Shown here piece by piece: positions 54,240-55,361 of a stretch of DNA of 64,000 nt. Both the position numbers and the translations under genes were made by a program. The notes below the pieces were generated by a model. It searched no databases, was not told where the DNA came from, and saw only the letters and a list, made by a program, of their open reading frames with translations. Each line of letters starts with the position of its first letter. Positions within the stretch are counted from its first letter, which is position 1. Location: NCBI RefSeq assembly GCF_024223415.1, contig NZ_CP100500.1. One strand, given 5' to 3'. Origin of the DNA: Escherichia coli. Lineage in GTDB: Bacteria; Pseudomonadota; Gammaproteobacteria; Enterobacterales; Enterobacteriaceae.

Positions 54240-54655
54240 ATTTTTCCCTAAATAGTCAGTATGTTGAAACTTTTTATTGTGAGATTTGTTGCAAAAACCA
54301 TCTGACCATAACGCCAGCTGCAGGGGAAAGGAAGGATTATCTGCGGTTTTTGTGATGAAAAGCAGGATGATTATGTTTAACCCAGTAAATACGTTCCTGT
54401 CTTTTTTTGTATAAAAATGTTTATTACTCGATGTAAGGATACATTAATTTTACGTTTATTATGATGAATCCTCTGCAAATGAGCGAAATTTGATAGAACA
54501 TTTATCTGCTGTACGATTTAATGAACTTAATGATACAGCATTACAAAAACAATCGAAGTTTATAAAATAACATTTTTATAAAGATGATTTCTGATTGACC
54601 AGAACCCTACCATACAATGGTGACTAATTTTATTACTCTCGAAGGAGATGATGAC

Positions 54656-55141
54656 ATGAATATATCATATGTGAATAGCAACAAAACGACATCTTTACCT
54701 GTAGAGCTAGATACACTAAATAACAAAGATATCTCTTATGCCAAAGATTTCTTTTTATATATAGAAATACAGTTAAAAATTGCAAAAGATTTTTGTAGAC
54801 CTGGAGAAGAAGTATCAAGTTCTATTGCAAGTACAGTTTTTCACGCTTTTATTGATTTAGTTAACAAAATCAGGGGAAAGAAAGATTGTATGTATATTTG
54901 TACGCTTTGCTGTTTTGCCGAGGAGGTTAAAGGTGATTATTCTCATTACAGGACCTTTTCATTTGATATCGGTAATCAATATAAGGTTAAACTTACACAA
55001 AGCGGAAAAGATGAGTTCTCTTTAACTTTAGAATTTAACGATACTATAATTGAATCTCAGAAAGTCACAGGCAATAAGGCAAAGCATATTCTTAAGGATA
55101 TAGCAGAATACTATCGTAACAAACCCGGCACTTATTATTAA
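54656..55141 (+). CDS. Hypothetical Cys-rich AT-rich protein at the K-12 yjbS position
   Basis: ORF 54617..55141 (174 aa; 161 aa from MNISYVNSN); AT-rich; K-12 yjbS is recalled as much shorter, so this may be a longer or intact allele. Confidence 0.45.
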   Translation: MNISYVNSNKTTSLPVELDTLNNKDISYAKDFFLYIEIQLKIAKDFCRPGEEVSSSIASTVFHAFIDLVNKIRGKKDCMYICTLCCFAEEVKGDYSHYRTFSFDIGNQYKVKLTQSGKDEFSLTLEFNDTIIESQKVTGNKAKHILKDIAEYYRNKPGTYY

Positions 55142-55361
55142 GTTTAATAATGATTAGAAATGCAGAAATTATTACCCCACACAAAAAACAGGGTAAGGAA
55201 TTCCAGATAATTAGGATAATCTTAACAATAAAATAACTAACAACGTTTATTATCTCTCACGTAGAACGATGGTATCAAAAAAATCATCTATAAAGAAAGT
55301 GTGAAAGCGACGACAGTTTAATTTCACTGCAGGCTGGGTAATTCCAGCCTGCTTTACTGCA

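Follow-up and report, generated by a model that had tools for sequence, protein, structure and literature searches.

Between the core genes aphA and tyrB, Escherichia coli K-12 carries yjbS, annotated as a gene for a protein of 67 amino acids (aa); at the same place, the stretch of 64,000 nucleotides of E. coli contig NZ_CP100500.1 considered here (the window, at its full length) has an open reading frame (ORF) of 161 aa. Which of the two represents the gene, and what is the AT-rich DNA around it? We conclude that positions 54656–55141 of the window represent an intact, full-length yjbS, very probably a horizontally acquired, H-NS-silenced, dispensable orphan gene in the course of repeated loss. 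The first-pass annotation had pointed to an AT-rich, Cys-rich ORF of 161–174 aa with a CTLCC motif in this spacer, at the position of yjbS, and had suggested that it was a full-length ancestral form truncated in K-12. The placement, the length and the motif are all confirmed by the coordinates and by synteny with K-12.

Long and short forms of yjbS

K-12 yjbS (b4621; WP_001321562.1, ‘protein YjbS’) is 204 nt long and has the same position and strand as the window ORF. The spacer DNA of the window and of K-12 is 94% identical, and the ORF aligns with just two 1-bp gaps. A G of codon 47 (TGT; 54795) is missing from K-12, so that the frame shifts and the product terminates at 67 aa; one A of the A-tract near ORF nucleotide 351 is missing too. 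Residues 1–46 are collinear, with a single substitution (T20A in K-12), while residues 47–67, the last 21 of the K-12 protein, are out-of-frame sequence; the predicted folded domain (residues ~50–155) is absent from the K-12 product. Putting the two bases back into K-12 yjbS yields a stop-free ORF of 161 aa, nearly identical to the intact 161-aa allele of strain 98233, from which K-12 differs within the ORF by the two deletions and 3 substitutions. Hence, K-12 yjbS is a young frameshift pseudogene of the long gene, and the window allele is the intact parent form.

The alignment with K-12 and other strains, suggested at first pass as a check, thus revealed frameshifts, and the expectation of a much shorter K-12 gene (67 aa vs. 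161 aa) was correct: the lengths do differ, and the long ORF is conserved across strains. Truncation in K-12 is real as well, being caused by two 1-bp deletions, but it is not peculiar to that strain, as the exact K-12-type 61-mer with the deleted G is found in 1410 of the 4331 spacer-carrying complete genomes.

Two in-frame ATG codons provide forms of 174 and 161 aa. A Shine–Dalgarno sequence, AAGGAG, precedes the second ATG, from which K-12 yjbS is also annotated, and therefore 161 aa is the better call; no Shine–Dalgarno sequence is read before the ATG of the 174-aa form. Forms of 174 aa are annotated in some databases, one of them in Shigella flexneri.

Judged by its sequence, the 161-aa frame does code for protein. 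When the spacer was shuffled 5000 times with its dinucleotides preserved, the longest ATG-initiated ORF had a mean length of 52 aa and a maximum of 143 aa, and none of the 5000 shuffles reached 161 aa; stop codons are frequent in DNA this rich in A and T. The GC content is 25–34% across the spacer and 30.9% in the ORF, compared to 52.8% in the whole window, in agreement with the initial description of the ORF as AT-rich. The term Cys-rich fits less well: the motif is there, but 5 Cys among 161 residues is a modest number, and one of them is polymorphic.

RefSeq, using the Prokaryotic Genome Annotation Pipeline (PGAP), labels intact alleles of 161 or 167 aa as ‘frameshifted’ pseudogenes, a consequence of having the truncated K-12 YjbS as reference protein, and sometimes adds an 83-aa ORF (WP_000275035.1) that covers the C-terminal half. 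The long form should be the reference for yjbS, and the reversal would correct thousands of genome annotations.

Alleles and selection within E. coli

Of 5426 complete E. coli genomes, 4378 match the spacer, most of them at 90–95% identity, and 1048 (about 19%) lack it. The ORF was read from the sequence at 25 E. coli loci. The frequency of intact and broken alleles was estimated from 39 evenly spaced full-length spacer matches, 24 of them read from the sequence; 16 (about 41%) are intact and 23 (about 59%) broken. Extrapolated to all complete genomes, about one third have an intact allele, about 47% a broken one, and 19% have no spacer. The K-12-type allele accounts for 13 of the 39, in agreement with the direct count of 1410 given above.

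Many unrelated E. coli, and also Shigella flexneri, have an intact allele of 160, 161, or 167 aa, in every case located between aphA and tyrB; the strains include SCU-316 (identical to the window), 98233, M11, E24377A, O145:H28 RM9872, O104:H21, and others. Intact alleles have from one to three in-frame copies of an 18-bp unit (KD[IF]SYA) and also differ by a single 3-bp deletion. The 161-aa and 167-aa alleles are one unit apart, and G3X16-2 has three copies.

Broken alleles carry at least six different lesions, mostly homopolymer slips. The K-12-type allele has lost a G and an A; O157:H7 has a 10-bp deletion at the hotspot 55004–55015, leaving 119 aa; CRE1540 and STEC367 miss two bases at the A-tract; AHM8C160RI has A6 for A7; HUM3355 and 720632 have lost 1 bp adjoining the A-tract; and G3X16-2 has gained a T. 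Several of the lesions fall in this one A-tract; it is reduced to A6, or shortened in another way, in a number of broken alleles, and in the window it is interrupted (AAAAGATG). SCU-308 shows many 1-bp homopolymer insertions, which may be assembly errors, and it was left out of the substitution counts. As other lineages carry different, independent lesions, the long form is the ancestral state. The initial suggestion of a full-length ancestral form is therefore supported by the widespread intact alleles and by these lesions, but it holds within E. coli only, as Salmonella, Citrobacter, and Kluyvera do not have the islet.

Selection on the ORF was assessed from nonsynonymous (dN) and synonymous (dS) divergence. 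The pairwise dN/dS by the Nei–Gojobori method (NG86) has a median of 0.31 for 11 distinct intact alleles, and the other five frames give 0.58–1.28. Against two more divergent syntenic intact alleles, the ORF has dS of 0.15–0.16 and dN of 0.05–0.08; the neighbours yjbR, yjbQ, aphA, tyrB, and alr have dS of 0.03–0.09 and dN of 0–0.009. In a spectrum-matched null, with the observed substitution types re-placed at random sites, 27 of 75 segregating changes are synonymous vs. 19.5 expected (P = 0.034). For all 23 alleles, synonymous changes number 29 vs. 21.6 expected (P = 0.04); nonsense changes number one at most, with about four expected (P = 0.075). The NG86 value of 0.31, taken as the strength of constraint, is an overstatement, since the spectrum-matched test gives an effective omega (dN/dS) of about 0.6; with P of about 0.03–0.04, selection is therefore described here as weak.

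The islet, its site and H-NS

The aphA–tyrB spacer of the window (54240–55361) has 1122 bp, and yjbS is its sole long ORF, on the plus strand. The corresponding tyrB–aphA spacers have 186 bp in Salmonella, 249 bp in Citrobacter, and 199 bp in Kluyvera. By blastn, nucleotides 1–132 of the spacer match E. coli Nissle (EcN), of phylogroup B2, at 92%; nucleotides 1–122 match Salmonella at 76%; and nucleotides 1–132 match Citrobacter at 72%; by megablast, only nucleotides 1–111 are shared with EcN. Homology to the outgroup spacers is thus limited to 54240–~54371, and the remaining ~1 kb is therefore Escherichia-specific. The islet is present in about 80% of complete E. coli genomes and absent from Salmonella, Citrobacter, and Kluyvera.

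Apparent carriers outside Escherichia were rejected. The sole non-Escherichia locus from the GTDB species scan, in ‘Flavobacterium paronense’ CECT 8460, is almost certainly E. coli contamination: the 9.5-kb contig NZ_JAUFQN010000013.1 (tig00000241) has 99.6% identity to E. coli (uvrA-yjbR-yjbQ-aphA-yjbS-tyrB) and a K-12-type yjbS. Plasmid carriers in PLSDB prove to be large pieces of chromosome, or chromosomes under a wrong plasmid label; two such records, NZ_CP134663.1 at 4.9 Mb and NZ_CP069917.1, a 17-kb Klebsiella oxytoca entry with a K-12-like yjbS, look like misclassification or contamination. On an 898-bp ENA contig, P0057, a 106-aa protein joins the first ~39 residues of YjbS (in the 174-aa form) to a fragment of haemolysin E (PF06109); it is probably a chimeric metagenome assembly.

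In EcN, the one non-carrier genome examined, the aphA–tyrB site is occupied by the 13.8-kb KguS/KguR-c5032-5039 island. Cai et al. (2013, PMC3694859) reported this alpha-ketoglutarate utilisation island of uropathogenic E. coli as an insertion in the tyrB–aphA interval. The island shares with the window spacer just the first ~111–132 bp by aphA and therefore replaces the yjbS islet rather than being merely added to it. Two elements at least can therefore occupy the site, a refinement of the view of the island as a simple insertion. Neither an integrase nor a tRNA is found at the aphA–tyrB site.

In K-12, the tyrB/yjbS region belongs to a set of 78 ‘promoter islands’; two chromatin immunoprecipitation data sets show H-NS bound to it, and it is flagged as foreign (PMC3661553). 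On the basis of TraDIS (transposon-directed insertion-site sequencing), yjbS was listed among genes ‘essential only by TraDIS’, with a low density of Tn5 insertions, together with the AT-rich ygeF/G/N and yedN (PMC5821084), and it has been cited as an essential gene in recoded-genome work (PMC13287592). This essentiality call is almost certainly an artefact, because the K-12 copy is frameshifted, the gene is broken in at least six other ways and absent from 19% of genomes, and it tolerates IS1: insertions of IS1 in yjbS were recovered twice in evolved, viable K-12 (PMC4999529). The distribution of transposon insertions is known to be skewed by H-NS (PMC4999555), and the low insertion density in yjbS is best explained by occlusion of AT-rich DNA by H-NS.

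Insertion sequences (IS150, ISVsa5, IS1A, IS5) are seen within the uvrA–tyrB stretch in HUM3355, MSI001, 1000C-3, WP2-S18-ESBL-08, and ATCC BAA-196; in HUM3355, IS150 truncates aphA. H-NS-bound DNA has been reported as a site of transposon capture (PMC11335895), and these insertions would fit such a role.

The features of the interval are listed in Table 1.

Table 1. Coordinates of features in and around the aphA–tyrB spacer of the window.
Feature	Position	Strand	Comment or basis
aphA (class B acid phosphatase), left core flank	53526..54239	-	237-aa ORF; annotated aphA in all matched genomes
Conserved aphA-proximal part of spacer (aphA promoter/5' region)	54240..54371	.	only stretch common to outgroups and B2 strains
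Escherichia-specific AT-rich islet holding the ORF, ~1 kb, 29–31% GC	54372..55361	.	no similarity to outgroup spacers or to EcN KguS/KguR island junctions
Optional 13-codon N-terminal extension from upstream in-frame ATG (174-aa form, 54617–55141)	54617..54655	+	ORF list
Shine–Dalgarno AAGGAG, 8 nt before ATG 54656	54642..54647	+	read from sequence
Full-length yjbS ORF, 161 aa and TAA	54656..55141	+	identical in strain SCU-316
18-bp in-frame repeat unit (KD[IF]SYA)	54725..54742	+	one copy here; 2 or 3 in other alleles
G of Cys47 codon TGT, deleted in K-12-type allele (primary frameshift)	54795	+	allele alignment
CTLCC motif, residues 82–86	54899..54913	+	translation
Frameshift hotspot, reads GGAAAAGATGAG here; mostly A7 tract (GGAAAAAAAGAG) elsewhere	55004..55015	+	per-allele sequences
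Inverted repeat CAGGCTGG-N6-CCAGCCTG directly 3' of tyrB stop	55330..55351	.	read from sequence
tyrB (aromatic amino-acid aminotransferase), right core flank	55362..56555	-	397 aa

The inverted repeat is a probable terminator of tyrB; it received no score in a simple terminator scan. Sigma-70-like sites in the promoter scan are no more numerous than in shuffles. The pair TTGACC...TACAAT just upstream was rejected as a promoter, its spacer being only 12 nt, and no promoter is claimed. No Rfam family matches the spacer at its gathering score. The sole match, weak and full-length, is to STnc150, an Hfq-binding small RNA of Salmonella (55131–55359, plus strand; 18 bits vs. a threshold of 60, E = 0.31), and is probably an artefact of the AT-rich composition.

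Upstream of the ORF, the window differs by one A in the A-run at position 54412 from its closest relatives (SCU-316, NCTC10444, KV7, and others), and at ~54560–54576 the window and SCU-316 have a 16-bp insertion, a duplication-like TTTATAAA... repeat, that is not seen in K-12, M11, or O157. A second variable site lies on the other side of tyrB, where EcN has a gene for an AAA-family ATPase and pnuC between tyrB and alr, and the window has a 252-bp spacer (56556–56807). In Salmonella, two small ORFs of unannotated family (112 and 147 aa) lie between yjbR and uvrA; they are not found in the window.

The protein, rival explanations and known systems

The 161-aa YjbS is a hydrophilic protein of 18.5 kDa with a pI of 6.8, in which neither a signal peptide nor a transmembrane segment is found. 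Comparison of 24 intact alleles shows no variation at C47, C85, or C86 and conservation of C82 in at least 90%; C78 is polymorphic (C/F). Nine of the first 15 residues are Ser, Thr, or Asn, and none is acidic. AlphaFold2 (AF2) predicts the same topology for two alleles, with mean confidence (pLDDT) of 62 and 73 and predicted template-modelling scores (pTM) of 0.60 and 0.70: the N-terminal 24–34 residues are disordered, followed by helices at ~26–46, 52–70, and 75–86, five strands within 89–138, and a last helix at 139–154.

The exact window protein is public as UniRef entry A0A2Y0Y299_ECOLX, ‘uncharacterized’, found on 609 contigs. A k-mer-filtered phmmer search of 5.8 billion proteins yielded nothing outside the E. 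coli/Shigella family; phmmer run exhaustively on 1.84 billion cluster representatives yielded only matches of at least 75% identity; and a profile search yielded only E. coli/Shigella copies and fragments. Where collinear, everything found in these searches has at least 75% identity. No meaningful match to YjbS is seen in Pfam, NCBIfam, PHROG, or PADLOC, and there are no phage matches and no genuine plasmid matches. Structural comparison is likewise negative: Foldseek against the PDB gives nothing below E = 0.2 and no robust structural relative, and assignment of YjbS to any specific fold family was rejected on that ground. A match to SipA in a sequence search of the PDB (E = 1.1) is spurious, as it pairs a helical region with predicted strands. 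No robust similarity is seen to the type III effector folds of VirA/EspG or the N-terminal domain of PipB2. The structural match to CdiI is weak (Foldseek probability 0.6–0.7, TM score 0.3–0.4); as for a role in contact-dependent inhibition (CDI) or Rhs immunity, there is no adjacent toxin C-terminal domain, and no ORF or similarity is found upstream in 54372–54655.

Taken together, these data suggest the following course. An ancestor of E. coli would have gained the islet by horizontal transfer, the donor being unsampled, and H-NS would keep it transcriptionally silent in ordinary conditions. The product of yjbS would be a small soluble cytoplasmic alpha/beta protein in which a disordered N-terminus rich in Ser, Thr, and Asn precedes three helices, a sheet of five strands, and a helix at the C-terminus. 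Its benefit may be conditional and weak, hence the loss of yjbS by mutation in many lineages.

Several points weigh against this interpretation. No donor lineage was found, and the horizontal origin is deduced from composition and phyletic pattern alone; E. albertii, E. fergusonii, and E. marmotae were covered indirectly, by the GTDB scan with exact 8-mers from the window allele. H-NS binding at yjbS is documented for K-12 only (PMC3661553), and no sign that the long form is transcribed or translated was found. Of the 39 allele assignments behind the fractions of intact and broken alleles, 15 were made by identity of bit score and annotation. The dN of the ORF is 10–20 times that of its neighbours, and purifying selection appears weak and marginal (P about 0.03–0.04), with an effective omega of about 0.3–0.6; the high dN and marginal selection together leave room for neutral decay of a once-functional gene.

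The main rival explanation takes the latter point furthest, regarding the long ORF as a relic everywhere, functionless in all lineages, with the open alleles just not yet hit. It is possible, though clearly less probable than the interpretation given above: at least six independent lesions have broken the gene in about 59% of carriers, dN is 0.05–0.077 vs. 0–0.009 in the flanking genes, the synonymous excess in the spectrum-matched test is marginal (P = 0.03–0.04), and the whole islet is dispensable, being absent from 19% of genomes; however, the ORF frame has the lowest dN/dS among the six frames, 16 distinct intact alleles with up to 8.6% nucleotide difference are still open where stops are frequent, nonsense substitutions number at most one vs. 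about four expected (P = 0.075), intact alleles differ from each other by indels in multiples of three, and the predicted fold is reproducible. An open frame arising by chance in a non-coding AT-rich spacer, with the H-NS-bound DNA itself as the functional element, is hardly credible given that none of the 5000 shuffles has an ORF of at least 161 aa, that a strong Shine–Dalgarno sequence stands at the correct distance from the start, that dN/dS is lowest in the yjbS frame, and that the AF2 fold has a pTM of 0.70; in its favour are the absence of protein-family matches and the description of the K-12 region as a ‘promoter island’ with little productive transcription (PMC3661553). Equally slight is the probability that the 67-aa K-12 form is genuine and that the long form arose by a secondary insertion fusing downstream sequence. 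The RefSeq names, ‘protein YjbS’ for the 67-aa product and ‘frameshifted’ for the long alleles, favour this version, but it is already contradicted by the data: the final 21 residues of K-12 YjbS are out of frame, alignment with K-12 requires two separate 1-bp gaps and their repair restores 161 aa, G54795 is present in every other allele class, including those broken elsewhere, and the best-predicted fold (pLDDT 86–92) lies in the C-terminal part of the long protein. Phase variation by slippage of the A7 tract and of the 18-bp repeat, making yjbS a contingency locus, would account for several independent frameshifts at one A-tract (A7 in intact and A6 in broken alleles) and for the range of one to three copies of the 18-bp unit. 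Yet A7 is short for high-frequency switching, and no A7 tract exists in the window allele or in its relatives (AAAAGATG); the 18-bp unit cannot switch expression, since it keeps the frame; the 10-bp deletion, the lost G, and the added T are not readily reversible; and the K-12-type lesion is fixed in 1410 genomes. As the window ORF contains neither a long homopolymer nor an out-of-frame short repeat, we consider phase variation very unlikely.

The remaining explanations concern the function of the intact protein. One of them sees intact YjbS as a type III substrate or effector-like protein, e.g., of the E. coli type III secretion system 2 (ETT2) or the locus of enterocyte effacement (LEE), whose gene decays along with the secretion system, as in K-12. 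The predicted disorder of residues 1–24/34 and the Ser/Thr/Asn-rich first 15 residues with none acidic would suit such a protein; yjbS is AT-rich and H-NS-bound, like effector genes; K-12 retains other AT-rich ETT2 or effector remnants (ygeF/G/N, yedN) of the same low-insertion class; and EcN, the one B2 genome examined, has no islet. B2 strains are not known to have ETT2. On the other side, Foldseek yields nothing below E = 0.2, the SipA sequence match has E = 1.1 with a helix paired with predicted strands, and no chaperone gene adjoins yjbS, so that we consider the effector explanation improbable. Less improbable, but still doubtful, is a broader proposal in which full-length YjbS is functional and E. 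coli-specific, with a fold that has no solved relative, silenced by H-NS and expressed in a particular niche (host or stress), possibly as a secreted effector-like protein; repeated loss, as in K-12 and O157:H7, would then reflect a change of niche in the lineage rather than neutrality.

With a dispensable orphan gene as the preferred explanation, the finding is a correction at the level of annotation and otherwise a case of ordinary orphan-gene decay, of which yjbS provides a clean small example, a gene in the course of loss.

Comparison with known systems places the window gene as follows. With K-12 b4621, in the yjbS orthologous group, it shares synteny, strand, start codon, and collinear DNA over the whole gene; the difference between the 67-aa reference and the 161 aa of the window is explained by the K-12 frameshifts, so that the reference is the aberrant member. 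The KguS/KguR island occupies exactly the same aphA–tyrB site and is the only alternative occupant seen, EcN alone having been examined, but it has 13.8 kb and ten genes with known metabolic and regulatory functions. Other AT-rich remnants of K-12, ETT2 ygeF/ygeG/ygeN and yedN, are intact in some other strains. Like yjbS, they are broken in K-12 and appear in the same H-NS/‘promoter island’ tables (PMC3661553) and the same TraDIS class (PMC5821084). In contrast to YjbS, for which no recognizable family, and no homologue outside E. coli/Shigella, is seen, they belong to recognizable families (type III secretion apparatus, chaperone, IpaH-like). Finally, yjbS resembles E. coli orphan (ORFan) genes in being short, AT-rich, fast-evolving (dN/dS 0.3–0.6), patchily distributed, and devoid of homologues elsewhere; it differs from them in that the predicted fold is reasonably confident (pTM 0.70) and the history of its decay, with at least six lesions, can be read directly.

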